A stretch of DNA of 64,000 bases from a virus: positions 32,001 to 96,000 of the IMG/VR virus record IMGVR_UViG_3300027816_000069, one strand, 5' to 3'. The notes below the pieces were generated by a model. The model was not told the DNA's origin. It did no database searches and worked only from the letters and a program-made list of their open reading frames with translations. A program made the position numbers and the translations under genes. Of this stretch, positions 2,408 through 19,122 are shown piece by piece; the first letter of the stretch is position 1, and every line of letters starts with the position of its first letter.

Positions 2408-2421
2408 AATTATTTTGAATG

Positions 2422-5944: not shown

Positions 5945-5988
5945 CTGCCAAAATGGCAGGCCGGCCGGCCCATCTGCCAAAATGGCAG
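5945..5988. repeat. tandem dyad repeat, copy 1
   Basis: CTGCCAAAATGGCAG-gccggccggcccat-CTGCCAAAATGGCAG. Confidence 0.95.
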
Positions 5989-5991
5989 TCG

Positions 5992-6008
5992 AGCAAACCG
6001 TGTGCCAA
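5992..6008 (-). promoter_or_regulatory. sigma54-like box
   Basis: TTGGCACACGGTTTGCT, adjacent to dyad copy 1. Confidence 0.55.
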
Positions 6009-6040
6009 ATAAAAATATTTTTTCCGTTGATTTTTTTTGA

Positions 6041-6067
6041 TTGACAAGCCGATAATTCTGGTATAAT
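6041..6067 (+). promoter_or_regulatory. early promoter TTGACA..GCCGATAA..TATAAT
   Basis: ttgacaagccgataattctggtataat. Confidence 0.7.
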
Positions 6068-6092
6068 CAAGGCATCACAAGGGAGAAAAGTT

Positions 6093-6287
6093 ATGCTTCA
6101 CGATTTTGATGATGTGAATCGGATTCTGGCTGAGATGACGAGCGAGAACATGATCGAACCCATCGACGAGAGCGATTGTCACCCGATGGACTGGGCCGAA
6201 GTGACCGGGGTGCTGGACGATGTGCAGGATGAAATTTATCCCGAGCCCATGCTTGACGAAAACGGTGTTCTGTGGTATGTTAGTTGA
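6093..6287 (+). CDS. acidic hypothetical protein
   Basis: GGGAG RBS downstream of promoter. Confidence 0.7.
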   Translation: MLHDFDDVNRILAEMTSENMIEPIDESDCHPMDWAEVTGVLDDVQDEIYPEPMLDENGVLWYVS

Positions 6288-6300
6288 AAAGGAAAAAATA

Positions 6301-6552
6301 ATGAGCAAAGGTCATGATGAATTGGCCGAATATCTTTACAATAATAAAGAGGATACTGATATGTACTATCATGATGACACTACCGACCCTAACTATGATG
6401 ATCATGAGGATTTTTACAGTGATTCATTTGATGATGATATGGATGGCGATGTGGAAACTGGCCTCGCTTCCGCCGGATGGGGAACCGATGAGGACTACGG
6501 GTATTATGGTGATGATACCCCGATGAGCGACGATTACTATGGTGGAGAATAA
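6301..6552 (+). CDS. highly acidic hypothetical protein
   Basis: D/Y-rich with LASAGWGTDEDYG motif. Confidence 0.7.
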   Translation: MSKGHDELAEYLYNNKEDTDMYYHDDTTDPNYDDHEDFYSDSFDDDMDGDVETGLASAGWGTDEDYGYYGDDTPMSDDYYGGE

Positions 6553-6556
6553 TAAC

Positions 6557-6853
6557 ATGCCAAAGATTAGTGTTAAGGATTGGATTAAGTCTTATATGTC
6601 ACAACCAGAGGAAAAGAAAATGATGAACGTTATCGTAACTCACACGGATACTTTTGGTGGAGAGGCTAATTATGGATGGGTGAAGCGTCACGAGTTTACT
6701 ATTCACAAGCATGCGTCACAGCGTAATATTACTCGAAAGGTTAAGGCTTTGGCCGGAATGACCGGTGTTAAGAGTGATACGTTTGATTATGATGTTGGTC
6801 TTACTATTAAGCCTAGGGGTTATAATCAAGTTATTTTCGTAGATTTTGAATAG
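6557..6853 (+). CDS. hypothetical protein
   Basis: TDTFGGEANYGWV motif; start may be 6620. Confidence 0.7.
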   Translation: MPKISVKDWIKSYMSQPEEKKMMNVIVTHTDTFGGEANYGWVKRHEFTIHKHASQRNITRKVKALAGMTGVKSDTFDYDVGLTIKPRGYNQVIFVDFE

Positions 6854-6865
6854 GAGGAACCCGAT

Positions 6866-6909
6866 CTGCCAAAATGGCAGGCGGGCCGGCCGATCTGCCA
6901 AAATGACAC
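6866..6909. repeat. tandem dyad repeat, copy 2
   Basis: CTGCCAAAATGGCAG-14nt-CTGCCAAAATGACAC. Confidence 0.95.
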
Positions 6910-6980
6910 CCTAATTTTTTCTCTTGACTATTCAAGTTCGGCCTGTAGAATACCGATAACACTAGTAGGAGAAAAAGAAA

Positions 6981-7205
6981 ATGGTTGACGGATACCAGAA
7001 AATCTATAAGTTTGACAATGGTTTTGGGGCCAGTGTGGTTTCTCATAGTGGCTCATATGGAGGAAAAGAGGGTTTGTTTGAGATTGCTATTCTTGATAAG
7101 AATGATCAAATTAGTTATGATACCTTTATTACTGGTGATGTAATTGGATGGCTTGATTTTGCTGGCGTGGCCGATATTCTGGAAAGAATTAAGAATCTTG
7201 CTTGA
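6981..7205 (+). CDS. conserved phage hypothetical protein
   Basis: FDNGFGASVV..GLFEIAI..DVIGWL. Confidence 0.75.
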   Translation: MVDGYQKIYKFDNGFGASVVSHSGSYGGKEGLFEIAILDKNDQISYDTFITGDVIGWLDFAGVADILERIKNLA

Positions 7206-7257
7206 CAAGTGTCGATAAGTAGAGTAGACTTACACTATACCACTAAGGGAAAAGACA

Positions 7258-7575
7258 ATGAATCACGCCGAAGCAATTAAGATGGTTCGTGGCAAGAGGA
7301 ACGCTGATCGTCGCAAGGTTGGCAACAATACCTATGCTGAAATTCTGCCGAATGGTAGTGTGGGAATTATGCTTCACAGTACCTATGTTGTACAGATTCA
7401 TCCTGACAATACCTACACCCTCAATAGTGGGGGCTGGCAAACGCTAACCACTAAGGATAGAATTAACCAGTATAGCCCGCGTCGAGTGTACCAGCGGAAT
7501 TTTGAATGGTTCGTGAAGATTAACGATAAGGAATATCCTTTTATGGATGGGATGGTGGTGGGTTGTCCCACCTAA
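7258..7575 (+). CDS. conserved phage hypothetical protein
   Basis: LNSGGWQTLTTKDRIN motif; promoter at 7202. Confidence 0.75.
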   Translation: MNHAEAIKMVRGKRNADRRKVGNNTYAEILPNGSVGIMLHSTYVVQIHPDNTYTLNSGGWQTLTTKDRINQYSPRRVYQRNFEWFVKINDKEYPFMDGMVVGCPT

Positions 7576-7613
7576 CCCTTCGGGTTCGGCTGGGGTGGCT
7601 GTAGTCAGCCAAA
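7564..7613 (+). repeat. TGT...GTAGTCAGC motif, copy 1
   Basis: TGT-to-GTAG offset is 37 nt in all four copies. Confidence 0.7.
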
Positions 7614-7618
7614 AATAC

Positions 7619-7660
7619 TAAAGTTTGAAACGTTGACAAGCCGATAGATAAAGGTAGAAT
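7619..7660 (+). promoter_or_regulatory. overlapping sigma28-like and sigma70 promoter
   Basis: TAAAG..GCCGATAG overlapping TTGACA..TAGAAT. Confidence 0.65.
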
Positions 7661-7892
7661 GGTGCAGAAATGGAGGTTGTTATGGGTCATCTTGCTGGGC
7701 TTTTGATCTTGGTCATTTTTTGTGGGTTTATTGTGGGTATTATTGGGGTGGCTGCTGATCTTAATGATTGAATAAATAAAAGGAATTCAAGGATGAATTT
7801 TGACCCCTATAATTTTGTGTGTGGTTTTATTGTAGCCTTATTGTTGTGCTATAGTGTGGCCGATCTGGTTTTTTCCACTAAGGATAATAGTA

Positions 7893-8180
7893 ATGAAATT
7901 GACGACTAAGGAAATCGTTTTTCTTGCTTGCGTGTTTGTGGTTGGTTGTTTTTGTGCTTTTTATGCTAATACCAGCATTAAGCATGATACTCCCGCAGAG
8001 TTTTTGAACGAAAAGCCAATGGAGCCGCCGAAGGTAGAATTTGAACAGGAACCTAGTGGGGTTTCATATAATGATCCCGAATTGAAAATTGTTGAAGTTA
8101 TGTATACTAGTGAACAGGAAGGAATTCATACTGTTAAGGTGGCCTCATGCCGAGGATGTCACTGGAAATGCTGCCAATAA
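7893..8180 (+). CDS. hypothetical membrane-anchored protein
   Basis: N-terminal hydrophobic helix. Confidence 0.6.
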   Translation: MKLTTKEIVFLACVFVVGCFCAFYANTSIKHDTPAEFLNEKPMEPPKVEFEQEPSGVSYNDPELKIVEVMYTSEQEGIHTVKVASCRGCHWKCCQ

Positions 8181-8214
8181 GGCAGCTCGGCCGGCCAACA
8201 TGCCAAAATGGCAG
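8171..8214. repeat. tandem dyad repeat, copy 3
   Basis: CTGCCAATAAGGCAG-14nt-ATGCCAAAATGGCAG. Confidence 0.9.
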
Positions 8215-8290
8215 TCAAAAAAATTTTTAAGTATTGCTTGACAACTGCCGATATCTAGTGTAGAATCAGCAAACACGAAAGGAAAAGAAC

Positions 8291-8530
8291 ATGACCTACA
8301 ACGGCTTCAAGAATTACGAAACGTGGAATGTTGTGCTGTGGATCAATAACGATGAGGGTCTGTATAATCTGGCTCGCCAGTGCGTATCCTATGATGAGTT
8401 TGTGGATTGTATGAAAGATTTGGGTGGTGAGATTGGATATCAAACGCCCGATGGTGTGGCTTGGAATGATTCTGGCATCGACCGTGAAAGCGTGAATCGG
8501 GATTGGGTTCAGGATTTTGTTGAAGTGTAG
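8291..8530 (+). CDS. conserved phage hypothetical protein
   Basis: YNG.KNYETWNV.LWINNDEGLY..TPDGV. Confidence 0.75.
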   Translation: MTYNGFKNYETWNVVLWINNDEGLYNLARQCVSYDEFVDCMKDLGGEIGYQTPDGVAWNDSGIDRESVNRDWVQDFVEV

Positions 8531-8592
8531 GCTTGACTTTTGACGATCATGGGTTAGACTATGGAAAAGGTTTTTCAAAACGAAAGGGTTTC

Positions 8593-9003
8593 ATGATGAA
8601 TGAAGTGATTATTGGTGCTATTGCTGCTGTGGTATTGGTTGCTGGTCTTCTGTCGTTTGCTGGTTTTCATGTGTATGGTGGCGTTAAGGATAGTCTGACC
8701 AATGCACGGGTTGGTCGAGTATACAACTTTGAGTATATTCAGCCCGTGACGGGTGATCCTGAGCGATTTATGGCTAAGGTGCTGGATGTTCATGAGTTTT
8801 CCGCTGATTATCTGGCTAGACTGAATGCGGTGAGTAGGTATCGTAGGTATGATCCTAACTTTGAGCGTAGCCGCCATATGGTGACGGCCCAAACGCCAGA
8901 TGGTAAGATTAGGAACTTTTACGCTGAACGCACCCGCAATGTTCGTCGGCCACTCCTTGGTGGGGTAGCCTTCCGAACAGGGCTGGCTGAACTGCTGTCC
9001 TGA
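8593..9003 (+). CDS. hypothetical membrane-anchored protein
   Basis: N-terminal TM; promoter at 8533. Confidence 0.7.
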   Translation: MMNEVIIGAIAAVVLVAGLLSFAGFHVYGGVKDSLTNARVGRVYNFEYIQPVTGDPERFMAKVLDVHEFSADYLARLNAVSRYRRYDPNFERSRHMVTAQTPDGKIRNFYAERTRNVRRPLLGGVAFRTGLAELLS

Positions 9004-9020
9004 AAAGATGTTCCATCGCA

Positions 9021-9051
9021 AGCCCGTCCTAGGAAACCCCTAGGGCGGGCT
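9021..9051 (+). terminator. GC-rich hairpin after gene
   Basis: AGCCCGTCCTAGG-aaacc-CCTAGGGCGGGCT. Confidence 0.6.
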
Positions 9052-9061
9052 GATGGAGTTT

Positions 9062-9105
9062 CTGCCAAAACGGCAGGCGGGCCGGCCGATCTGCCATAAT
9101 GGCAG
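9062..9105. repeat. tandem dyad repeat, copy 4
   Basis: CTGCCAAAACGGCAG-14nt-CTGCCATAATGGCAG. Confidence 0.95.
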
Positions 9106-9234
9106 GAAATTTCTTGTGGATTTTGTCTCTTGACAAGCCGATACTAGAGTGTAGAATGATAGAGTCACCAACAAAAATCCGATTCATTCGGTGTTATACG
9201 CTTGACAAGTCGAGAACGTATGCTATATTGGTGA

Positions 9235-9827
9235 CACAAACTTTCGTGGGTCCATGCGGCGGGACTAGATTGGGATAACCTATTTCGATAAACTTTCTCT
9301 GAAAGACTGGGGGAGTTGCCAACGGGGTTATACGTTGGATAGAAGTACCAATCTATGGGGGATGGCGTCCTCACCACGACCAATACTTTATGGGTGACGG
9401 TTTTCCGTATGACGAGGCAAAGCACAGCGGAGCGAAGGGGAGTTACCGGTGACGAACCTTCCACGCGGCCTCCCAAACTGCGAAAGCAGGAGTAGAAATA
9501 GGTGACACCCATAAACAATATTATGGTTCCTAGATAATAGGTTAGGATTAAAAACGTTCGCCCTTCCCATCCTTTGTGATAGGCTAAAAACGTTGCCATA
9601 TACAATACAACCAGTAACCGTTTCTAAGAGCCAGACCAAATAGGGTTATATGCGCAATACCACCTTATTTGCAGGGAGGATTTCCGTGGACGGTTTTCAT
9701 AGAATCGGGGCGTAAAAGATTCGCTGGTTACAAATCTGCTGATAGTTTCCCTTAGATAAGGTAAAACCTTGAGGTTGAACGGATCAGTACCGAGAGGCTG
9801 TTCGTAAAACTATCGGCGGTCGGTACT
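9235..9827 (+). ncRNA. large structured ncRNA (~590 nt), family unassigned
   Basis: promoters at 9130 and 9202, no credible ORF, many long-range helices, GNRA hairpin, 3' pseudoknot. Confidence 0.75.
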
Positions 9828-9860
9828 TGACTTGATGATAAAGAATGGTAGAATAGTTTT

Positions 9861-10061
9861 ATGAAAATCATACCAAAACAAAACGCACGAAAGTGGACAA
9901 AAGAACGGCTGAAACGTCATCCGGGTCTTTGGAAGGTTGAGCAGGATGCTAAGAGTGTTCCTTGCTGGCCGGGCGAAGATGCTATTTTGATGAAAAATTT
10001 GACTGATGGTTGGAGTGGCTGGTTTCCGATAAAAGATATTGACATAGCCGGTCAGGAATGA
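9861..10061 (+). CDS. hypothetical protein
   Basis: ORF after promoter at 9827. Confidence 0.6.
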   Translation: MKIIPKQNARKWTKERLKRHPGLWKVEQDAKSVPCWPGEDAILMKNLTDGWSGWFPIKDIDIAGQE

Positions 10062-10277
10062 TAGAATACTGAAATGACACTGCAAGAGTTTCTGGATGAG
10101 TTTCTTGATCCAAAGTTTCAAGAGATGATGAAGATTGTGGAAAAAGTCTTAGAGAAAAAAAATGAGAGTATTTCGTAAAATAATTCTGTTTTTCCCATCT
10201 TTAACCATGTTCTTTTTGGCATACTTTACTTTTATTTGTGATAACGAGGCTACTAAATTTAGTTTTAGGTGGAAATA

Positions 10278-10505
10278 ATGACCGTTAATGAACTTATTGA
10301 GATGTTGAAGAATTATCCGGGCGATATGAGGGTATTGACTCTTGGGTATGAGGGTGGGTATAATGATATTAGATTGGACAATAATGATATTGTATTTGAT
10401 GTCCAACGCGGTGAAGGGGCTTGGTATTATGGGCCTCATGAGTGCGTGGAGTTTACAGATGAGAAAACTGGTACAAAGTGCTTAATTATTGCTAGGACGA
10501 AATGA
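10278..10505 (+). CDS. hypothetical protein
   Basis: MTVNELIEMLKNYPGDMRV..GYEGG, a common phage pattern. Confidence 0.7.
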   Translation: MTVNELIEMLKNYPGDMRVLTLGYEGGYNDIRLDNNDIVFDVQRGEGAWYYGPHECVEFTDEKTGTKCLIIARTK

Positions 10506-10565
10506 ACTGGCATTATGGACAACCTAATGTAATGAGATTGGTCTAAATCCTTATAAGAAATAACA

Positions 10566-10748
10566 ATGAAAACTGAAACTCTTGAACTGACTAAGACTGA
10601 ACTTGATTATCTTCTGAGTGTTGTTCATGAACATATTGACTCTGGTGTTTCATGGGGTAATTGGGGGGGTAGTCATGCTCAGTTTGTAAAGATGCAAAAT
10701 AGAGTTTTGGAAAAGATTGAGGAAGCCAAAACTGGTAGTGTGTCCTAA
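10566..10748 (+). CDS. hypothetical protein
   Basis: ORF in tiled run. Confidence 0.55.
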   Translation: MKTETLELTKTELDYLLSVVHEHIDSGVSWGNWGGSHAQFVKMQNRVLEKIEEAKTGSVS

Positions 10749-10793
10749 AAATGGTTCTATTATGCCAGAGTATTATCTGCAAAAGGAATAGGT

Positions 10794-11033
10794 ATGGAAT
10801 GGATTAGTTTTTTTGATCGTCAACCAGAAGACGGGCAAAAGATTTGGTATTATGGAAAATATATTGGTGTGTGGGTTGGTATATACCATTATTCTCCAAA
10901 TGATCCTGTAAGTCCTCATATTATTTTATGCGACGAGGCTCCCGGCGTTGTGGATCGTATGGATGCCCCGTATTGGCAACCTTACAGACCAGCAAAACCA
11001 GAGAAAGATTACCCAAAGGATTATCCATCATGA
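10794..11033 (+). CDS. DUF551-like hypothetical protein
   Basis: MEWIS..DRQPE..YWQPY. Confidence 0.6.
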   Translation: MEWISFFDRQPEDGQKIWYYGKYIGVWVGIYHYSPNDPVSPHIILCDEAPGVVDRMDAPYWQPYRPAKPEKDYPKDYPS

Positions 11034-11203
11034 TTGACAATAAAGATAAGGCGTTGATTTATGTGATTAACTTTTTTAACTCTCGTATGAGTGCCATGAA
11101 TAAGAATAATATAGAGAGAACTAAAGAATTAATCTCTACTCATAAAATTAGTGCTAGTGAACTTGTGGATAAGTATGTGAAATTAGTATATGAAAACTCT
11201 TAG
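11030..11203 (+). CDS. hypothetical protein
   Basis: ATGA overlap with upstream gene. Confidence 0.55.
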   Translation: MIDNKDKALIYVINFFNSRMSAMNKNNIERTKELISTHKISASELVDKYVKLVYENS

Positions 11204-11315
11204 TGATATTTGTCCATGTGGCGCTTGTGATGTGCTAGTATGGAAATATGATGATAATGGTTTAATCTGGTTATTTTGCCAGCAATGCCACTGGTGGTAT
11301 ATCGGAAACGATTAA

Positions 11316-11359
11316 CCGCCAAAATGGCAGGCTGGCCGGCCGATCTGCCAAAATGGCAT
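11316..11359. repeat. tandem dyad repeat, copy 5
   Basis: CCGCCAAAATGGCAG-14nt-CTGCCAAAATGGCAT. Confidence 0.9.
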
Positions 11360-11424
11360 TCTTTTTTTCTTAAGAATACTCTTGACAGACGCCGATCATA
11401 GGAGTATACTTAATACACAACCAT

Positions 11425-11507
11425 GCCGCTGTGGTGGAATTGGCATACACATGACACTTAAAATGTCACGCCTTATAGGCTTGCGAGTTCAAGTCTCGCC
11501 AGCGGTA
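11425..11507 (+). tRNA. tRNA-Leu(TAA)
   Basis: cloverleaf; anticodon arm TGACA-ctTAAaa-TGTCA; long variable arm. Confidence 0.92.
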
Positions 11508-11567
11508 TTCTTTTTAGTCCGAATTGTAAACGCTCTATATAGTAGACACCAAAGCGTTTGAAATATT

Positions 11568-11617
11568 TGTTTTTCCCAATCCTTCGGATTTGGCTGGTGT
11601 GGCTGTAGTCAGCGAAA
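11568..11617 (+). repeat. TGT...GTAGTCAGC motif, copy 2
   Basis: ccaatccttcggatttggctggtgtggctgtagtcagcg. Confidence 0.7.
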
Positions 11618-11690
11618 GTTTAAAGGTCTTGACAAGGTTTGGTCGATAAGGTATAATAGAAACAACAAGACGCATAACTAAAGCGAAATA

Positions 11691-11775
11691 CCCCGATGTT
11701 CCACACGACTGACTGTAAATCAGTTGACATATTATGTGTGGCGGCTGTCAAGTGGTTCAACTCCTCCATCGGGGA
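11691..11775 (+). tRNA. atypical D-armless tRNA-Tyr(GTA)-like RNA
   Basis: CCCCGAT/ATCGGGG acceptor, ACTGA-ctGTAaa-TCAGT, TTCAACT loop; own promoter at 11629. Confidence 0.6.
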
Positions 11776-11819
11776 TTAAAGGTCTTGACAAGCACTAGCC
11801 GATAAGATATACTACAAGC

Positions 11820-12233
11820 ATGAAACAGAAACCACTACATGCCGAAGTTCGATTCCATCTTGGTAAAGGTCAGTTTTTTAAGCATTGGCAAATCAAGATT
11901 GTACAAGGAAAAGAGAAGGTTGATGTTTACTATTGTGATCCTGCCTATTATCAATTAGAGATGATTGGGTGCAAATTAATCAATAAGGTTAATCAGGCTA
12001 AAAAGGTTCATGAGGCTGGCGTTAAGGATGTTACGGGGTGGGTTGAGTGTAGGGATGTTAGAATAAATAATGAAGTAGGGGTTGACAATCTTGAGAAATT
12101 ATACTACAATCCGTTGAGAGATCCGCACTGGCGTCGTGAAAGCGACAATAACGAGTTCATTTGGGATAATAGTGAATACGCTACTCTACTAACTAACGGC
12201 AAACAAGTTTATATTTTGGAAGAAAGGGTTTGA
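11820..12233 (+). CDS. hypothetical protein
   Basis: 137-aa ORF, apparently leaderless after promoter at 11785. Confidence 0.7.
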   Translation: MKQKPLHAEVRFHLGKGQFFKHWQIKIVQGKEKVDVYYCDPAYYQLEMIGCKLINKVNQAKKVHEAGVKDVTGWVECRDVRINNEVGVDNLEKLYYNPLRDPHWRRESDNNEFIWDNSEYATLLTNGKQVYILEERV

Positions 12234-12235
12234 AT

Positions 12236-12607
12236 ATGATCAAGTTGGAACTGACGGTTCGTGAGGCTATGAATCTGGCGACGAACTGCCACCTCGATAT
12301 CTATGAGCGGATTGTGGCCGCTTTTGAGGTTGCGTTGGGTGTGAACCAGCACAGGATGGTTACTATCACCGCTGGCATGACTCTTGATAACCGTGTTCCT
12401 TGTATCAAGGCTATCCGACTCCACGCCGGCTGGGGTTTTAAGGAGGCAAAGGAGTGGACGGATTTTCTGGTTGGCGGCTGGAAGTACGACAAGTGGCATC
12501 CTGCTTCTCCCAACGCCAAGCAGAGCATCACCCTCAAGACTCCGGAAGCGGCCGAGAATCTGCTGCGTGATCTGACCACTTTGGGTTGTGAGGGTTTTCT
12601 CTCATGA
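12236..12607 (+). CDS. ribosomal protein L7/L12 C-terminal-domain-like protein
   Basis: RVPCIKAIRLHAGWGFKEAKEW..EAAENLLRDLTTLG resembles KI.VIK.VR..TGLGLKEAK. Confidence 0.6.
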   Translation: MIKLELTVREAMNLATNCHLDIYERIVAAFEVALGVNQHRMVTITAGMTLDNRVPCIKAIRLHAGWGFKEAKEWTDFLVGGWKYDKWHPASPNAKQSITLKTPEAAENLLRDLTTLGCEGFLS

Positions 12608-12619
12608 TCCAAACCCTGT

Positions 12620-12663
12620 CTGCCAAAATGGCAGCGGGGCCGGGCGATCTGCCAAAATGACAG
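12620..12663. repeat. tandem dyad repeat, copy 6
   Basis: CTGCCAAAATGGCAG-14nt-CTGCCAAAATGACAG. Confidence 0.95.
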
Positions 12664-12846
12664 CATAAAAAATTCATGTATGATACTTGACAATGCCGAT
12701 GCTTAGTGTAGAATGATGTTATCACGAGACAAGACGCTGGTTGACTGCAACACAAAAAAGTTCAACCCAGCACTTGACAAGTGACGATAAGTGATGTATG
12801 ATTCGTTTATTGGTGGTTGATAACTCTTTTGGGAAAGGTTTTTACT

Positions 12847-13104
12847 ATGCGTACTTATGATTTTGCGGTTGCTGTTGCGTCGGACACTCTTGATACGGAA
12901 GTGGTTGAGGATACGATTCGTCAGGCTCTTGCCGATGGTCTGCCCGATGGTACTCTTGTGGTGGTCAAGGCCCAGGGTATCAAGGACTATAGCGAGCAGG
13001 GCTGGAAGGTTGCCCGTAATCGCAAGTTCGGTGTGAGTGTCAAGGAAGCCGGTGACGGTCACAAGGCTAAGACTACTAAGGTTGAGGCGGAGACTGTTGG
13101 CTGA
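12847..13104 (+). CDS. hypothetical protein
   Basis: promoter at 12774, AAAGG RBS. Confidence 0.7.
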   Translation: MRTYDFAVAVASDTLDTEVVEDTIRQALADGLPDGTLVVVKAQGIKDYSEQGWKVARNRKFGVSVKEAGDGHKAKTTKVEAETVG

Positions 13105-13170
13105 ACACGGTTCGGGAGTTATAATGTCCGATAGACCGCTGGTGGACGCACTGGCGGCTATCGGTATTTC

Positions 13171-13242
13171 GGCCCCATAGTTAAAAGGATATAACACGGG
13201 ATTTCTAATCCTGTATTAGAGGTTCGATTCCTCTTGGGGCTA
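13171..13242 (+). tRNA. tRNA-Arg(TCT)
   Basis: cloverleaf; CGGGA-ttTCTaa-TCCTG. Confidence 0.9.
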
Positions 13243-13246
13243 TTTA

Positions 13247-13320
13247 GGGAGCGTAGATCAATCGGTTAGATCGCCAGCCTGTCACGCTGGAGGTTGCGGG
13301 TTCGAGTCCCGTCGCTCTCG
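13247..13320 (+). tRNA. tRNA-Asp(GTC)
   Basis: cloverleaf; CCAGC-ctGTCac-GCTGG. Confidence 0.95.
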
Positions 13321-13323
13321 CTT

Positions 13324-13367
13324 CTGCCAAAATGGCAGGCTCCGCGGCCGAACTGCCAAAATGGCAG
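13324..13367. repeat. tandem dyad repeat, copy 7
   Basis: two perfect 15-mers with a 14-nt spacer. Confidence 0.95.
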
Positions 13368-13441
13368 TTAAAATTTTGTGGATTCTTTCTCTTGACAAGC
13401 CGATAACGTAGTGTAGAATCACTAGCACAAGGGAGATAACC

Positions 13442-14146
13442 ATGAAAACTGCTGATGGTAACGACAAGTTGGGTAAGGGTTGCATTGTGGTTTCGCGTCC
13501 TGTTGGCGACACTTGCCCGTCAACGTGCGACTTTCTCAATAATGGCTGCTATGCCGAAGCCACCGAGAATCAGTATAAGAACGCTCGCACCGCGGGCTTT
13601 GCTAATGTTATTACCGAAAAGCATAAGATTCGTGCTATGATTCTTGATGCTATCAAGCGTAATAAAAGCATCCGCTGGCATGAGCGTGGCGATTGGTTTC
13701 TCAACGGCGAACTTGATACCAACTATGTTGAGAATGTAACGTGGGCGTGTGAGAGTGTTCTGGCCGATGGTATTAGTCTGCCTAATATGTGGTTTTATAC
13801 TCATATCTACGATAGTCGGCTTGTTGTACTGGAAAAGTATATGGCCGTCTATGCTAGTATTCATAATGCAGAAGATAGGGCTGCTGCGGTGTCTGCCGGT
13901 TTTAAGTTGTTTGCGTGGTGCGATAGTGATACTAAGATTGCTCCCAAGCGTCCAAAGAGTAAGGCCAAGGCCGATGCGTGGCGTAAGGCTTTGCCTAAAC
14001 TGGTAATTATCGAAGATGTCAAGTATGTTGTTTGCCCCGAGATTCGTCGTGGTCGATCAGTTATTACTTGTACTGGTACTAAGGATAGTATTAGTTGTGA
14101 TATGTGCGTCAAGGGTTTGGCTAACGTACTATTTCCTGCCCACTAA
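13442..14146 (+). CDS. GP88-like (radical-SAM-related) phage protein
   Basis: TCP..C......CYA, IRWH..GD, C-terminal CP...CDMC. Confidence 0.6.
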   Translation: MKTADGNDKLGKGCIVVSRPVGDTCPSTCDFLNNGCYAEATENQYKNARTAGFANVITEKHKIRAMILDAIKRNKSIRWHERGDWFLNGELDTNYVENVTWACESVLADGISLPNMWFYTHIYDSRLVVLEKYMAVYASIHNAEDRAAAVSAGFKLFAWCDSDTKIAPKRPKSKAKADAWRKALPKLVIIEDVKYVVCPEIRRGRSVITCTGTKDSISCDMCVKGLANVLFPAH

Positions 14147-14158
14147 AAGGATATAACA

Positions 14159-14401
14159 ATGGCTAAGTATTATGTTAATAGTGGTACGCTTCAAGTGATT
14201 ATGGACCATAGTGATCCTCTTGAGGCTGGAGTGGCCGGATTCCTAATGACTAACAAGATGGATACAATAGATGAGTATTTTTATATTGATGAGCGTGGTT
14301 TTCGTGATTATGTCAGTGCTGATAATGGTACTAACGTAATTCCTACTTCTAGCATTATTCGTGCCGCCGAATCCGAATTGACGGATGACACTCTGCCATA
14401 A
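14159..14401 (+). CDS. hypothetical protein
   Basis: AAGGA RBS; stop lies within dyad copy 8. Confidence 0.7.
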   Translation: MAKYYVNSGTLQVIMDHSDPLEAGVAGFLMTNKMDTIDEYFYIDERGFRDYVSADNGTNVIPTSSIIRAAESELTDDTLP

Positions 14402-14436
14402 TGGCAGGGCGGCCGGGCGATCTGCCAAAACGGCAG
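14393..14436. repeat. tandem dyad repeat, copy 8
   Basis: CTGCCATAATGGCAG-14nt-CTGCCAAAACGGCAG. Confidence 0.95.
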
Positions 14437-14501
14437 TTAAGTTTCTGGTACGATTGGCCGATAATTCTTTCATGGACAAGGGTTTGACAAGGAGGGTTAA
14501 T

Positions 14502-14864
14502 ATGCTACAATGGATTGGCGTTGCGTTGACTGCTGCTGCTTTGGTGTATACGGGTGTTAAGGATTATCAAAAAGGGGATATAAAAATTCCTCCCCTAAAT
14601 AAAAATTTGACAACTCCTAAGTATCCTGTACAATATTGTTTAATGGCGTATGACCCTAACCTAGATAGGATTTTTTACCTTCACGAAAACGGACAATGGT
14701 ATGATCATCCCCCACAACAACGACGATATGCGGCCACGTCGCAAGTACAACAGTATCAAAATCAAAACCAAGCAGCGGTGGGAACTTCCTACGGGTCACA
14801 GGGAGGAGCGGTATACGGTTATGGACAATCGGCCCAAGCGTCAACGTACCCGCAGCGATATTGA
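14502..14864 (+). CDS. hypothetical membrane-anchored protein
   Basis: AGGAGG RBS, N-terminal TM, Q/Y-rich tail. Confidence 0.65.
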   Translation: MLQWIGVALTAAALVYTGVKDYQKGDIKIPPLNKNLTTPKYPVQYCLMAYDPNLDRIFYLHENGQWYDHPPQQRRYAATSQVQQYQNQNQAAVGTSYGSQGGAVYGYGQSAQASTYPQRY

Positions 14865-14895
14865 CAGGAAGTGGCGTAAGGAGTATGATATATAG
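14728..14895 (+). CDS. small basic protein (overlapping frame)
   Basis: MRPRRKY..DNRPKRQRTRSDIDRKW. Confidence 0.45.
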   Translation: MRPRRKYNSIKIKTKQRWELPTGHREERYTVMDNRPKRQRTRSDIDRKWRKEYDI

Positions 14896-14976
14896 GTTAT
14901 TCTTGGTTTGAGTCATGACAAATCGAGAAGATAGTTTATGAGGGTATTCTATCTTTAAATAAAAACTATCCTCTTT

Positions 14977-15049
14977 GCCGGTATAACTCAGTTAGCAGAG
15001 TGTCAAATTTGTAATTTGAATGTCGTGGGTGCAAATCCTACTACCGGCT
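14977..15049 (+). tRNA. tRNA-Thr(TGT)
   Basis: TCAAA-ttTGTaa-TTTGA. Confidence 0.9.
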
Positions 15050-15082
15050 CTAGGAATTGAAATAAAAAACGGTGAATAATGC

Positions 15083-15155
15083 TGCCCGGTAGCTTAACTG
15101 GTAAAGCTGTTGACTTTGGATCAACTGAGTCTAGGTTCGAATCCTAGCCGGGCAT
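15083..15155 (+). tRNA. tRNA-Gln(TTG)
   Basis: GTTGA-ctTTGga-TCAAC. Confidence 0.92.
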
Positions 15156-15164
15156 ATGATTTAT

Positions 15165-15236
15165 ACACGGGTAGCATAATGGTAATGCCCCAAACTGTTA
15201 ATTTGTCAGATGTAGGTTCGAATCCTACCCCGTGTG
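15165..15236 (+). tRNA. tRNA-Asn(GTT)
   Basis: CAAA-ctGTTaa-TTTG; acceptor ACACGGG/CCCGTGT. Confidence 0.85.
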
Positions 15237-15245
15237 CTTAGTTTG

Positions 15246-15316
15246 ATTGGCGTAGTTCAACGGTAGAACGACGGTCTCCAAAACCGTAGATGGGGGTTCG
15301 ATTCCCTCCGCCTTTG
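15246..15316 (+). tRNA. tRNA-Trp(CCA)
   Basis: ACGGT-ctCCAaa-ACCGT; two acceptor mismatches. Confidence 0.8.
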
Positions 15317-15318
15317 TT

Positions 15319-15405
15319 GGAATCTTGGCCGAGTGGTTTAAGGCAGCGGTTTACTAAGCCGCCGAGGGTTAAAATCCTCCACAGGTTCGAATCCTGTAGA
15401 TTCCG
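15319..15405 (+). tRNA. tRNA-Ser(ACT)
   Basis: GCGGT-ttACTaa-GCCGC, long variable arm, G73. Confidence 0.88.
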
Positions 15406-15407
15406 TT

Positions 15408-15487
15408 GGTGGATTTCCAGAGCGGCAAATGGGCCTGACTGTAGATCAGGTGCTTCGGCTTCGGGGGTTCGAGTCCCTCATCCACCA
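15408..15487 (+). tRNA. tRNA-Tyr(GTA)
   Basis: CCTGA-ctGTAga-TCAGG. Confidence 0.92.
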
Positions 15488-15537
15488 CTAAACTTTTACT
15501 TGACAACGGTCGATAACAAGGTATAATCCCACAACAC

Positions 15538-15613
15538 GGGGCGTAAGGTAAGCCGGTTGCATCCGTCACTCTTATAAGGTGATCTTAGGTACGTTCGACT
15601 CGTACACGCCCTA
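15538..15613 (+). tRNA. tRNA-Ile(TAT)
   Basis: TCACT-ctTATaa-GGTGA; atypical D arm; own promoter at 15500. Confidence 0.75.
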
Positions 15614-15652
15614 CTTATATGTTTCGGAGGCTGACGTTTGAGTTGCGAGTGT

Positions 15653-15725
15653 GGCCCTATCGTCTAACGGTTTAGGACTTCGGATTTTCGTTCCGAATAT
15701 CGGGGTTCGAATCCCCGTAGGGTCA
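15653..15725 (+). tRNA. tRNA-Glu(TTC)
   Basis: TCGGA-ttTTCgt-TCCGA. Confidence 0.9.
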
Positions 15726-15766
15726 CTTGACAAAACAATCTGGCGAGGTACAATAAGGCTAAATAC

Positions 15767-15839
15767 GGGTCATTAGCTCAATTGGCAGAGCAGCATCCTT
15801 TTAAGTTGTAGGTTGTAGGTTCGAGTCCTACATGACCCA
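15767..15839 (+). tRNA. tRNA-Lys(TTT)
   Basis: ctTTTaa loop; acceptor GGGTCAT/ATGACCC. Confidence 0.88.
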
Positions 15840-15887
15840 TTGACAGCGGACGGTGTTTGGTGTATAATGCGATTAAAGGAGAGTTTT

Positions 15888-16046
15888 ATGTTTCATGGCG
15901 AGTATGAGAATTATGAAGATATTGTAAAAGACTCAGACGAACTCTTTTCGTATGATGATGACCACAGTTATGAAACTAATCTCTACGATGAAAGAGAATG
16001 GGACAATTACTATCATATTTTGGCCGATGAAATAGTGGAAGAATAA
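15888..16046 (+). CDS. small acidic hypothetical protein
   Basis: AGGAG RBS; stop lies in the first attC-like R'' box. Confidence 0.6.
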   Translation: MFHGEYENYEDIVKDSDELFSYDDDHSYETNLYDEREWDNYYHILADEIVEE

Positions 16047-16134
16047 CACTCAGGACCAGGAGCGGCTCGCAGCCGCAGGAGGACGACATGATTTCAGACG
16101 TTGACGCGAGTCCGCTGCATCGTCTTGGTTCGCA
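16041..16134 (+). repeat. attC-like site 1 (degenerate or chimeric)
   Basis: GAATAAC...GCGGCTCGC / GCGAGTCCGCTGCATCG..GGTTCGC. Confidence 0.6.
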
Positions 16135-16459
16135 GAAGCAAAGGGGTAGCGAAATGCCGGTGTCTTGGAAGTTGGTAGAGAACTGCTCTGGTAAGGTTTT
16201 GCGGCGGTCAAAGAACCGCGTATTTGTTGCGGGCTGGCGTCGCGTCATTGGGGCAACGGTTGTGCCGGCGTGCATTCTCCCGTCAGTGGGCCAGCACGTG
16301 CGGTTCGGTTCTTTCGATTGGGAGGTAGTGCGTGTTGAGCAAGTTGAGTGCGACTACGACCCTTCTTATCTGTACCGCGTCGATCTTGTGATCCGCGACG
16401 AGAGCGGAAAGCCAGTAAACTTCGCGAGCGGAATATCAAACCTCTGCCTTGACGGCTGA
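16088..16459 (+). CDS. cassette protein 1, hypothetical
   Basis: AGGAGG RBS and ATG inside attC1; stop in attC2. Confidence 0.65.
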   Translation: MISDVDASPLHRLGSQKQRGSEMPVSWKLVENCSGKVLRRSKNRVFVAGWRRVIGATVVPACILPSVGQHVRFGSFDWEVVRVEQVECDYDPSYLYRVDLVIRDESGKPVNFASGISNLCLDG

Positions 16460-16505
16460 GAACGCCAGCGATCAGCGGCTCGTCCGCTGCGTCGCGTGGT
16501 TATGG
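16457..16505 (+). repeat. attC-like site 2
   Basis: TGAGAAC gcca GCGATCAGCGG ctcgt CCGCTG c GTCGC gtg GTTATGG. Confidence 0.85.
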
Positions 16506-16515
16506 AGACACACAC

Positions 16516-16683
16516 ATGACAATCACTCAAATAATCGGCGTTGCACTGACCTCATCCCCATTTGCGGGCGTTGCGGTGTTGTGCCACATGCACGGCGGCT
16601 GGCCCGCCGTTGCTGTAGTGTTTGGGGCGACCGGAGCCGTTGTTGCTGTTATCGCACTTGGGTGCCGACTTCTGGTTACATAA
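16516..16683 (+). CDS. cassette protein 2, 55-aa membrane protein
   Basis: GGAG RBS; MTITQIIGVALTSS..VVAVIALGCRLLVT; stop in attC3; below the ORF-track cutoff. Confidence 0.7.
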   Translation: MTITQIIGVALTSSPFAGVAVLCHMHGGWPAVAVVFGATGAVVAVIALGCRLLVT

Positions 16684-16766
16684 CGGCTGCGATCAGCGGC
16701 ATCGAACACAGGAGCGACCATGACGAAAGAGGTAGATGAGATGTCCGCTGCATCGCGTGGTTCTGC
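16678..16766 (+). repeat. attC-like site 3
   Basis: ACATAAC ggct GCGATCAGCGGCATC...GATGTCCGCTGCATCGC gtg GTTCTGC. Confidence 0.85.
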
Positions 16767-17019
16767 GGTGATGGCCTACGCCGTGATTGACGACGAGGGC
16801 GTGCAGCACTCGCTGTGGTTTCTGGAAAAGGACGCGACGAGCGAGGCCGCGATGGTCGGTGGGACTGTGGTGCGGCTTGGCCACCCCACGCTCACCGACG
16901 AGGAGCGGGAGGCGTTGGAGTACGGCATTAGGCAAGCCGACGAATACGACAGAGTAGGGCTTGAAGACGCAAAGCGCGCCGCAATTGTGTTTCGCGGCCT
17001 GCTGGAACGACTAGGCTGA
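16720..17019 (+). CDS. cassette protein 3 (LTDEERE family)
   Basis: start inside attC3 loop; stop in attC4. Confidence 0.75.
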   Translation: MTKEVDEMSAASRGSAVMAYAVIDDEGVQHSLWFLEKDATSEAAMVGGTVVRLGHPTLTDEEREALEYGIRQADEYDRVGLEDAKRAAIVFRGLLERLG

Positions 17020-17066
17020 GAACGCTTGCGATCTGCGGCGCAGTCCGCAGCATCGCGTGGTTCTCA
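17017..17066 (+). repeat. attC-like site 4
   Basis: TGAGAAC..GCGATCTGCGG cgcagt CCGCAG c ATCGC..GTTCTCA; compensatory change versus sites 2 and 3. Confidence 0.88.
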
Positions 17067-17083
17067 CAGGCATGGAGACAGAC

Positions 17084-17311
17084 ATGAGGCCGACACCAAT
17101 CGGACGGTTTGCTGACACGCCCTCATACGAGGAGTTGCAGCGAGAGGTTGCCCGCCTGCGGCTCACCGACGAGGAGCGGGAGGCGATTGAGCGGCTGTGC
17201 GAGGCCGCCAATGACATAATCTACGATGACAGGACGGCCGGTGGAAGCCACTGGCAAGAGGACGAGGCGGCGGTTGCTGTGGCTCGCGGCCTGCTGGAGC
17301 GGACGAAGTGA
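17084..17311 (+). CDS. cassette protein 4 (LTDEERE family)
   Basis: GGAG RBS; paralogous to cassette 3. Confidence 0.75.
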   Translation: MRPTPIGRFADTPSYEELQREVARLRLTDEEREAIERLCEAANDIIYDDRTAGGSHWQEDEAAVAVARGLLERTK

Positions 17312-17420
17312 GAACTCTTCTTCACGGATGCAACTTGGTGGGACAAGTATCTATTATAGGCAACTAGCCTTTCTTATTCCTTTCTTATACGTTCGAATCG
17401 TATCATCCGTGCTGTTATGA
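17309..17420 (+). repeat. attC-like site 5 (divergent)
   Basis: TGAGAAC..CACGGATG / CATCCGTG..GTTATGA. Confidence 0.45.
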
Positions 17421-17908
17421 ATATACTACATCAGAAACTAGAAGATCATCGAGTTACTCCAGACGGCCAATATATTAAGGGTTGTAGCCATACTACAAAA
17501 GTGCTAAATCATAAGCACAGAAATTCTATAATCATAAAGGCCATTTGTGATTTGCGTAAGATAACTGATGAGTTTGATAGTATAGCCTGCTGTGGTATTA
17601 GTGGTTTGATGGTTGTTCCACAAATTGCTGAACTGCTGAATAAACATATTATTGTTATTCGTAAGAAAAACGAGGAATGTTATTCAAATTTTTTTATGGA
17701 AGGTGTTACTCCTTGGAGGTACATAATAATTGACGACCTTATTTGTTCTGGCAATACTTTTAGGCATATCACAAGCACTATCTCAAATGACTACCGCAAG
17801 GCTCAGTGTGTAGGACTCTATTGCTATATGCCAGAAGAATGTTCATATAATAAAGATAATATTAAAGAATTTGAACGAAGATTCCGTACTCAACTATTAA
17901 ACGTCTAA
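17417..17908 (+). CDS. type I phosphoribosyltransferase
   Basis: PRPP-binding YIIIDDLICSGNT; IRK motif. Confidence 0.8.
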   Translation: MNILHQKLEDHRVTPDGQYIKGCSHTTKVLNHKHRNSIIIKAICDLRKITDEFDSIACCGISGLMVVPQIAELLNKHIIVIRKKNEECYSNFFMEGVTPWRYIIIDDLICSGNTFRHITSTISNDYRKAQCVGLYCYMPEECSYNKDNIKEFERRFRTQLLNV

Positions 17909-17925
17909 AAGGGGGTCCGCATATC

Positions 17926-17969
17926 CTGCCAAAACGGCAGGGCGGCCGGCCGATCTGCCAAAATGGCAG
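17926..17969. repeat. tandem dyad repeat, copy 9
   Basis: CTGCCAAAACGGCAG-14nt-CTGCCAAAATGGCAG. Confidence 0.95.
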
Positions 17970-18063
17970 AAAAAATTTCCTCAATTCTGGCTGTTGACAA
18001 GACGATATCATAGTGTAGAATCAGTGCATCGGAACGAAGAACGCTATCACGAAAGGGTTGACA

Positions 18064-19011
18064 ATGCCTGCTGCTGTTGAAAAGATGATGTTTGTTGGTG
18101 CTACGCCTTGGCACGGTCTGGGCAATCAGTTGGATGAGGCTCCGTCGATTGGCGAGGCGATTACCGCTGCTGGTTTGGATTGGGAAGTTGGATTGAAGGA
18201 CTTGCAGACTGTGGACGGTGTGCCGGTGTCGCATCGTGCAACGTACCGCAAGACTGATGGTAGCATCCTTGGAGTTGTGGGTCCGCGATATACTCCGCTC
18301 CAGAATCAGGATGCGTTTGATTGGTTCCAGCCTTTTCTGGATGCTGGCGAGTGCAATCTGCATACCGCCGGTTCGCTCCATAGTGGTCAAAAGGTTTGGG
18401 TGCTTGCTCAACTCAACCGCGACAATAGCGAAATTGTCAAGGGTGATGAGGTCTGCAAGTTTATTCTGCTGAGTAATAGTCACGATGGAACAACGGCTAT
18501 TCGTGTCGGATATACCCCGATCCGCGTGGTCTGCGTGAATACGCTGGCTGCTGCTCATCACAACAAGGCTAGCAAACTGATTCGGATTCGTCACACTCGC
18601 TCCAGCAAAAATAATCTGGATAATGTGCGTGATATTATGGACAATATCAACGCTGAGTTTGAGGCTACTGCCGATCAGTTCCGGTTTCTTGCTAGCAAGA
18701 GTTTCAACCAGAATGATGTTCGTCGATATGTCAAGACGGTGCTGGGCATCGAAGGTACGCCGGATGGCGATATCAAGACTCGCACCCGGAATATCATGGA
18801 CGAAATTCTTGCACTAATCGAAGGTCCGAAGCAGAGTGCTGCTGGGGTTCGTGGAACTTACTGGGCCGCTTATAACGGTTACAATGAGTACCTGAATTAT
18901 AACAAGGGTCGCACGACCGATAATCGGCTCGACTCTCTCTGGTTCGGTCAAAATGCTAATGATAATCTCAAGGCACTGAATGTGGCTATGGAGTTTGCTA
19001 ACGCGGTCTGA
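18064..19011 (+). CDS. DUF932/DUF945 phage-plasmid protein
   Basis: TPWHGLG, AGLDWEV, NSHDG, TPIRVVCVNTL, GTYWAAYN. Confidence 0.85.
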   Translation: MPAAVEKMMFVGATPWHGLGNQLDEAPSIGEAITAAGLDWEVGLKDLQTVDGVPVSHRATYRKTDGSILGVVGPRYTPLQNQDAFDWFQPFLDAGECNLHTAGSLHSGQKVWVLAQLNRDNSEIVKGDEVCKFILLSNSHDGTTAIRVGYTPIRVVCVNTLAAAHHNKASKLIRIRHTRSSKNNLDNVRDIMDNINAEFEATADQFRFLASKSFNQNDVRRYVKTVLGIEGTPDGDIKTRTRNIMDEILALIEGPKQSAAGVRGTYWAAYNGYNEYLNYNKGRTTDNRLDSLWFGQNANDNLKALNVAMEFANAV

Positions 19012-19036
19012 TTCTTCCTTTCGTGGCGTGATCGAA

Positions 19037-19070
19037 GCCGCCGTAGGGGCAACCCTGCGGCGGTTTTTTG
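19037..19070 (+). terminator. intrinsic terminator
   Basis: GCCGCCGTAGGG-gcaa-CCCTGCGGCGG-TTTTTT. Confidence 0.85.
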
Positions 19071-19078
19071 TCAATAGG

Positions 19079-19122
19079 CTGCCAAAATGGCAGGGCGGCC
19101 GGCCGGAATGCCAAAATGGCAG
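19079..19122. repeat. tandem dyad repeat, copy 10
   Basis: CTGCCAAAATGGCAG-14nt-ATGCCAAAATGGCAG. Confidence 0.95.

Follow-up and report, generated by a model that had tools for sequence, protein, structure and literature searches.

The window analysed here is a 64,000-nucleotide stretch of DNA, bases 32001-96000 of the single viral record IMGVR_UViG_3300027816_000069 (122,350 bp, 34.9% GC), and our subject is a foreign GC-rich island on its + strand at 16047-17315 (all positions are those of the window). The island is 1269 bp long with 60.2% GC, as against 34.9% in the record, and forms an integron-type array of four gene cassettes without an integrase, that is, a cluster of attC sites lacking integron-integrase (CALIN). 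Its flanks have 43.7% and 45.2% GC, and it is the sole long run above 56% GC in the record. A first-pass annotation, made from the letters of the DNA, had pointed to a GC-rich island right after the tRNA cluster, with four co-oriented single-gene units whose stop codons overlap a box ending in AAC. Both statements hold. Twelve tRNA genes lie at 11424-15839, the last being tRNA-Lys, and the island carries four + strand open reading frames (ORFs), each with its stop codon in such a box (TGAGAAC in three, CATAAC in one). On the left, the stop codon TAA of a native acidic ORF (15888-16046, +, 52 aa) together with the next base makes the AAC of the junction. On the right, the junction is a lone R box (TGAGAAC, 17309-17315, +) with no site beyond it, and a native PRTase-like gene follows at 17417-17908 (+).

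Four attC-type sites on the + strand make up the array. Sites 1 (16040-16134, 3' arm at 16110-16132) and 3 (16678-16766) have long loops and are about 79-89 nt in length, and sites 2 (16457-16505) and 4 (17017-17066) are compact, with 49 and 50 nt, in keeping with the short sites of about 50 nt described before. The repeat has the form GAGAAC-N4-GCGATC(A/T)GCGG ... CCGC(T/A)G-C-(A/G)TCGC-N3-GTT. Its inverted halves (repeat families D1 and D2) are real, and neither half was found elsewhere in the record at 0-1 mismatch. The outer R''/R' repeats with AAC ... GTT are present in all four sites, and so is the attC layout of L boxes and extrahelical bases 6 bp apart opposite AAC: the 3' arm of the + strand reads T, a 6-bp stem and then C, the T and the C being the extrahelical bases. 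In the window sites, as in the phage and bacterial families described below, the two central spacers measure 4 nt and 3 nt, whereas 5-6 nt is given for attC sites. These results extend the first-pass annotation by the long-loop site 1 (at ~16040-16134) and by a second unpaired base, the T, which lies 6 bp further in than the C. The unpaired C it had noted is real; its strand assignment had to be changed, because the + strand is the integron bottom strand and the extrahelical base of the recombining strand is C, not the G it had named.

The folding of the sites as single-stranded DNA differed from site to site. Site 4 folds at -16.6 kcal/mol (z -3.4, reached by 0 of 200 shuffles) and is the only one clearly better than its shuffles; for site 2, z was -1.4 (+ strand) and -2.3 (- strand), and for site 3, at -0.7, it was not significant. 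In site 1 the minimum-energy fold leaves the two arms unpaired with each other. This site is a hybrid, with the 5' arm of a second subfamily (AGGAY-CAGGAG pairing with CTCCTG-C-ATCC, as in L040, L070 and L084) and the 3' arm of the main subfamily; its 5' arm is 92% identical to L084/L040 and its stretch 16061-16121 is 95% identical to L009. No site resembles a terminator: a terminator scan listed none of the four, and GTGGTTCT.. follows the hairpins with no T run, so they are not intrinsic terminators. We know of no attC family in Rfam.

The site family is tied to bacterial integrons by its occurrence beside integron integrase genes (intI). Among 185,579 species genomes, only six contigs matched, all from metagenome bins or short contigs. 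The integron integrase model TIGR02249 scored over its cut-off in three of five repeat-bearing genomes as compared to 0 of 14 control genomes, and in 35 of 201 sampled genomes of the same order, the Pirellulales (Planctomycetota). For 20 intI loci we retrieved the gene together with some 10 kb of DNA to either side. At two loci (L268 and L269) the same L boxes adjoin intI on the array side, 1-2.6 kb away, and cassette ORFs end right there. We then used R1, a covariance model of 18 Pirellulales chromosomal sites, four of which adjoin intI. The mean column identity of these 18 sites is 82%, and in their consensus a 7-bp R stem and a spacer of 4/3 nt lie outermost, followed inwards by stems of 5, 6 and 7 bp, with a bulged C between the first two of these stems and a bulged T between the last two, and by a loop of about 30 nt. 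In the alignment 91.2% of cells are paired, as against 26-43% when the partner columns are slid, and the covariation score is 0.101 as compared to 0.072 +/- 0.010 for shuffles, of which one in 500 reached it. AAC and GTT are paired in 16-17 of the 18. Members are about 88 nt long, and one of 58 nt adjoins intI. Nivina et al. 2016 (PMC5027507) describe, for the attC bottom strand, two extrahelical bases 6 bp apart in the arm opposite AAC; the two bulged bases of the Pirellulales sites, 6 bp apart in that arm, follow this published layout.

When R1 was run over the intI-bearing stretches, 57 matches at E<=0.001 fell in 18 of the 24. At each locus they lie on one strand and on one side of intI, the exception being a weaker reverse-strand match on the L268 site. 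In the 64-kb window the same model finds exactly the four sites, all on the + strand: site 1 (match 16050-16128, 23.3 bits, E 2e-5), site 2 (37.2 bits, E 2e-10), site 3 (52 bits, E 1e-15) and site 4 (48.2 bits, E 2.2e-14). Nothing else in the window, where scores of the sites run from 23 to 52 bits, falls below E 0.03. The next-best match is the reverse strand of site 4 (14.4 bits, E 0.03), and the best unrelated one has E 0.039. A covariance-model search had been proposed as a check on the array, and with a model built from Pirellulales sites it gave E values of 1e-15 to 2e-5. The window sites are thus genuine members of the attC family of Pirellulales-type chromosomal integrons.

Two side observations concern the bacterial loci. 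In nine of the 18 site-bearing intI loci (L256, L258, L259, L270, L217, L260, L272, L273 and L274) the array is placed past the 3' end of intI and runs in the same direction as the gene, a layout that may be the 'inverted integrase' type; the other nine have the usual divergent layout. One of the nine co-directional loci, L217 (G010:C39), is a 15.8-kb contig of an assembly labelled Cyanobium sp. It carries a true integron integrase at 10050-10982 (457 bits), a compact phage-type 49-nt site at 13782-13830, about 2.8 kb past the 3' end of intI, and a second site.

The phage cassette genes are reversed as compared to canonical bacterial cassettes. In the bacterial segments between sites, the ORF on the strand opposite to the model sense is the longer in 31 of 36, and the G1-C1 codon skew favours that strand in 28 of 36. 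In the phage segments the skew favours the model-sense strand in 66 of 74, and in all four window cassettes the sense ORF is the longer. The coding strand of the phage is therefore the attC bottom strand, its genes run opposite to bacterial cassette genes, and an attC site stands upstream of each gene. We took the coding strand from protein-family conservation and codon-position skew; a test of synonymous changes scored the ORF frame and one antisense frame alike.

ORF1 (16154-16459, +) has 101 aa from the ATG at 16154, or 123 aa from the ATG at 16088 within site 1. Its cassette is 96.5% identical in nucleotides to L120, and a homologue occurs in L020. ORF2 (16516-16683, +) encodes a hydrophobic protein of 55 aa, and site 2 with ORF2 is 90.7% identical to L022/L070/L112. 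ORF3 (16720-17019, +, 99 aa) belongs to a family marked by LTDEERE ... LLERLG and reads through the 3' arm of site 3; its cassette is 86.7% identical to L014, and 51 further homologue clusters were found, all hypothetical by name or unnamed. ORF4 (17084-17311, +) has 75 aa from the ATG at 17084, with a GTG at 17057 also open. It is of the ORF3 family, the two genes being paralogous, and its cassette is 79% identical to L100. Among the matches listed, the best DNA match of each cassette thus lies in a different GC-rich viral contig, at 79-96.5%. Searches of the four ORFs against Pfam, PHROGs and a protein atlas gave nothing usable on function.

Two of the sites hold a translation start. The loop of site 3 contains AGGAG and the ATG of ORF3, and the leader it encodes, M-x-x-E-V-D/N-E-M-S-A-A-S-R-G-S/Y, heads 13 distinct ORFs, whose proteins beyond the leader are, as we read them, of eight or more unrelated kinds. 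The loop of site 1 is of another type and contains a Shine-Dalgarno sequence as well as the ATG at 16088.

Two observations bear on the LTDEERE family in other settings. In run X1 the LTDEERE segments of ORF3 and ORF4 (16886-16962 and 17117-17193) reach a summed contig depth of 233-266 as compared to 11-14 in the flanks, so the protein family is very abundant in that lake metagenome. In L070, a 205-kb phage contig of about 50% GC, three tandem LTDEERE genes without attC sites between them lie at 2266-3107, just upstream of a five-site array.

The first-pass annotation had seen neither an integrase nor attI, and both are absent from the array: no tyrosine recombinase (PF00589) was found in the 122-kb record, estimated to be 88% complete, and the array begins at the stop codon of a phage ORF, not at attI. 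The locus does not have the intI, adjacent attI and Pc promoter of a complete integron. With four sites within 1.1 kb on the + strand and no PF00589 in the record, it is a CALIN as the term is used by Cury et al. 2016 (PMC4889954), namely two or more attC sites that share a strand, are separated by less than 4 kb and have no intI in the vicinity. The same lack extends to the other carriers. A search of 47 viral records with such sites, five of which are at least 90% complete, found no integron integrase in any. A related Xer-like tyrosine recombinase of about 300 aa is encoded in four of five GC-rich viral contigs with arrays (L125-L128; G001, G003, G004, G005). We rejected it as the integrase of the arrays: it lies 9-44 kb from them, none of its scores comes near an NCBIfam cut-off, and the matches listed do not include TIGR02249. 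Transposition of the REP/RAYT or IS200 type was dropped on the strength of the link to intI; no family search was made for it.

The site before insertion can be seen in relatives of the phage, a comparison that had been proposed as a check. With the PRTase-like gene as query, we found 91 relatives of that gene in viral contigs, at 51-67% protein identity. A comparable acidic ORF lies between tRNA-Lys and the PRTase-like gene in these relatives, and none of the 80 related loci kept carries either arm of the repeat. Eighteen loci were scanned for the empty-site gap and 13 were measured; in L130 and L137 the gene start is not at 4001, in L156 some 800 nt separate the end of the last tRNA-Lys from the gene, and in L174 and L208 the upstream tRNA-Lys is absent. 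In the 13 measured loci, all without the island, tRNA-Lys and the PRTase-like gene are 299-354 nt apart, as against 1577 nt in this phage. At the empty site, the acidic ORF ends in its stop codon, and after 0-3 bases a TCTTCTTC-like run leads into ACGGATGCAACTTGGTGGGACAAG.

The junctions can be placed to the base. On the left the sequence reads gaaTAA|C-ACTC.. and goes on into the 5' arm of site 1. On the right it reads ..GTGAGAA|C-TCTTCTTC; the last cassette ends in GTGAGAAC and the native TCTTCTTC comes directly after it. Beyond the lone R box the native sequence TCTTCTTC..ACGGATGCAACTTGG matches the empty sites. With an R-box AAC at each junction, the insert consists of complete units only: four sites, four ORFs and one lone R box. 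The absence of the island in relatives and its ends at AAC boxes fit capture by an integrase acting in trans. No closer site, empty or occupied, came up in two scans of viral contigs; one metagenome scan gave two matches, which proved to be chance matches in unrelated genes.

The family is widespread among uncultured viruses. A loose pattern of the two inner arms matched at least 118 viral contigs, and at least 102 of these hold a full site with R boxes. The other 16 (L001, L017, L021, L026, L029, L043, L046, L050, L052, L053, L073, L079, L082, L097, L101 and L103) are chance GC-rich matches in which R boxes are absent. The GC content of the site-bearing viral loci is 53-70%. In five records the copies number 10, 6, 8, 4 and 4, each set in one cluster on one strand, and the reversed-pattern control gave 0. 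Among the matches listed there are 94 distinct sites, which span 48-51 nt. The variable base pair of these sites is A-T in 72, T-A in 19 and an A.A mismatch in 3; the compensatory A-T/T-A change pointed out in site 4, which carries the T-A pair, is therefore real and systematic across the family. AAC and GTT occur in 94 of 94, as the collection pattern requires. The outer parts of the two R boxes show a complementarity of 2.38 as compared to 2.30 +/- 0.09 in shuffles; no excess is expected if these boxes come from different cassettes. Neither INPHARED phages nor PLSDB plasmids gave a blastn match to the island, to the 4 kb next to it or to the 55-nt repeat.

Public sequencing data from 11 freshwater studies (2017 to 2025) include 20 runs in which the stretch 15700-17600 is nearly complete. 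Logan contigs break at the attC sites, where the summed depth is several-fold higher, owing to other members of the family. Contig joints that could have passed for excisions (for example, 16479 to 16743) are contigs of such other members.

We consider it probable that this CALIN of the Pirellulales-type attC family was inserted by an integron integrase that a host supplied in trans. The enzyme would have used a secondary site immediately behind the small phage ORF's stop codon. IntI is described as cutting the attC bottom strand between A and C of AAC (PMC5027507) and as inserting cassettes at genomic GWT sites with cleavage of the bottom strand only (Loot et al., 10.1101/2022.09.11.507474). 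On that account, junctions at AA|C together with four ORFs, four sites and a lone R box are the structure expected of bottom-strand cleavage and insertion at a GWT-type site. A cassette on the + strand would then consist of C, spacer, attC, ribosome-binding site, ORF and a terminal ..GAGAA. The cassettes would probably be transcribed from a phage promoter at 15840, and in sites 1 and 3 the variable loop of attC would supply a Shine-Dalgarno sequence, a start codon and a short leader peptide. The first-pass annotation had proposed that the phage acquires and shuffles genes through an IntI acting in trans. The attC family, the empty site and the AAC ends fit its acquisition part, and shuffling was not seen in the contigs of four runs.

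Several points weigh against this interpretation. The action of the integrase is itself an inference. The sequence before insertion is known only from relatives at 51-67% protein identity, so that the C required at the target is unverified, and TAAC stands at the target in L146 alone, one of 13 relatives. The short matches, AATAA at the left junction and TCTT (as in L038) at the right one, would also fit illegitimate recombination driven by microhomology, and the far end of the L070 array, in a different large phage, is not at an AAC box. In Logan contigs from four runs of four studies both junctions were unchanged and no clean excision was seen, rare excisions lying beyond what contigs reveal. 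Crossover mapping with 100 sites, after removal of sites within 160 nt of a locus end, found the internal site features at background match rates in 41 pairs alike in the downstream flank only and in six alike in the upstream flank only, the pairs not being independent; with internal features linked to neither flank, a single fixed crossover point is not demonstrated. The sites themselves depart from the textbook attC in that the first extrahelical base is C and not G, and in their 4/3-nt spacers. The published criteria ask for two or three extrahelical bases that span 6 bp from first to last, spacers of 5-6 nt and a length of 57-141 bp (PMC5027507), and sites 2 and 4, with 49-50 nt, fall below that range. 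Site 1, a poorly paired hybrid, is probably inactive and not recombinable.

Another explanation, which we regard as unlikely, is that a co-infecting GC-rich phage was the source of the 1.27-kb block and that illegitimate recombination mediated by microhomology, with AATAA and TCTT as the possible microhomologies, copied it, the hairpins being passengers and no integrase taking part. The closest relatives of every cassette, among the matches listed, are in GC-rich viral contigs and not in bacterial chromosomes, no integron integrase was found in the 47 site-bearing viral records searched and no tyrosine recombinase in this one, the two parts of the hybrid site 1 are themselves joined within a short stretch that they have in common, and the array was stable in the contigs of four runs; all of this is as copying between phages would have it. 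What it does not readily give is a block with both ends at the AAC of an R box and made of whole units of about 220-410 nt, as two random breaks would be unlikely to do so. Four ORFs, four sites and a lone R box are the product of an insertion that an integrase makes at a secondary site, as described by Loot et al.

It has also to be asked whether the hairpins are kept by the phages mainly as RNA or DNA signals, for processing, mRNA stabilisation or translation start, with the mosaicism arising by homologous recombination, general or by a phage recombinase, between conserved repeats of about 50 nt, a mechanism that has been put forward for the promoter stem-loop repeats of T4-type phages. The sites do stand upstream of each gene on the transcribed strand, two of them supply a Shine-Dalgarno sequence and a start codon, their internal features are unlinked to either flank, and the phage records have no integrase. 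Single-strand-annealing recombinases need no more than 50 nt of near-identity. We find this explanation quite improbable. The same family adjoins intI in bacterial chromosomes with genes on the other strand, so the hairpin is conserved independently of mRNA sense; no site is terminator-like or followed by a T run; and the insertion in the window took place without flanking homology in the relatives. A signal role is, moreover, compatible with insertion by an integrase acting in trans and does not exclude it.

The promoter that would serve the array belongs to the phage. It is of the sigma-70 type (15840-15868, +), with TTGACA, a spacing of 17 nt and TATAAT, a match of 12/12 to the consensus that bears out the promoter proposed at 15840. 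It directly follows tRNA-Lys and reads into the acidic ORF, the island and the downstream gene, and the small ORF of the relatives is preceded by the same promoter. Near-perfect or perfect sigma-70 promoters (11-12/12) also lie at 15500-15527, 15727-15754 and 17994-18021, between tRNA genes and before small genes, as does the one at 15840-15868; a scan found 10 promoter-like sites as compared to 2.6 expected.

From its gene content, with RIIA, RIIB, a clamp loader, DNA and RNA ligases and an RtcB-type ligase, the phage reads as T4-like and virulent. The cyanophage marker psbA (PF00124) was looked for in the record and not found. Relatives, viral contigs with the PRTase-like gene, reach 243 kb, and the 122,350-bp record may therefore be a fragment. 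The tRNA and early region has two further features. A 15-nt palindrome-like repeat, CTGCCAAAAYGGCAG, occurs in 18 copies within 5945-19122, all on the + strand, as against 0 expected. Sixteen of the copies form eight pairs with a spacing of exactly 29 nt (for example, 17926-17940 and 17955-17969) in intergenic positions. The repeat would seem to be a paired operator or RNA signal native to the phage, unrelated to the attC sites. A tRNA-Ser at 15318-15406 has the unusual anticodon ACT, which is the same in most related phages and is GCT in a few.

Integrons are familiar as a means by which bacteria capture genes. Clusters of attC sites without an integrase are already published for phages, where the reports are recent and such clusters rare. 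Qi et al. 2023 (PMC9892861) report 17 CALINs, three complete integrons and one In0 in 10,705 NCBI phage genomes, and five of six phage attC sites recombined in their assay of IntI1 with attI1. The CALINs of that study resemble the array described here in being integrase-less attC clusters in phages, virulent ones included, with co-oriented small cassettes mostly of unknown function, and a dependence on bacterial IntI was proposed there too. Our case differs in its carrier, an uncultured T4-like lake phage with Pirellulales-type attC sites, and in its reach, this one attC family occurring in at least 102 IMG/VR contigs and in no INPHARED record. It also has genes on the bottom-strand side, sites of 49-50 nt, start codons within some sites and an empty site in relatives.

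The array shares with the Pirellulales integrons the R boxes, the spacers, the L boxes (GCGAT-CAGCGG / CCGCTG-C-ATCGC) and the bulged C and T. The Pirellulales arrays lie beside intI, with genes on the top strand and site loops of some 40 nt. In the phage array both intI and attI are missing, the genes lie on the other strand, and the loops are either reduced to 5-6 nt or contain a translation start. In T4-type phages, the PeSL mobile regulatory cassettes are another kind of conserved hairpin repeat, found between small early genes at the borders of shuffled modules. They consist of a promoter and a stem-loop, and recombination by homology has been proposed for them. The sites in the window differ from PeSLs in having attC anatomy, in belonging to a family that adjoins intI, and in having been brought in with foreign GC-rich DNA. 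Insertion by IntI at attG (GWT) secondary sites, as set out by Loot et al., is alike in its minimal GWT/AWC motif outside attI and attC, in cleavage of the bottom strand and in a product with a complete attC at one end only. That work was experimental, in E. coli with IntI1-3, whereas here the insertion is deduced from the anatomy of the junctions, with the target base C unverified. A limited literature search returned no publication on this attC family in viral contigs, on the reversed polarity of phage cassettes, or on start codons in attC loops.

It is quite conceivable, if still short of probable, that lake phages hold a mirror-image cassette pool of their own. Its genes, on the bottom-strand side of attC, would be silent in a bacterial integron and expressed in a phage, its loops would be either trimmed or turned into portable translation starts, and unrelated phages, GC-rich ones of 40-100 kb as well as AT-rich T4-like ones, would swap cassettes through the integron integrase of planctomycete-type hosts.

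The empty-site relatives, together with junctions at the predicted cut point, give a before-and-after picture of cassettes entering a virulent-type T4-like phage. The tie to a bacterial attC family turns this into a testable prediction of the host of an uncultured phage, namely one with a Pirellulales-type IntI, and a natural attC of 49 nt offers a minimal site for mechanistic work. A separate phage cassette pool, with reversed polarity and start codons inside its sites, would raise new questions on how cassettes are made and how the strand is chosen. If the mirror-image pool does exist, the integron would be a gene-sharing system for viruses as it is for bacteria.

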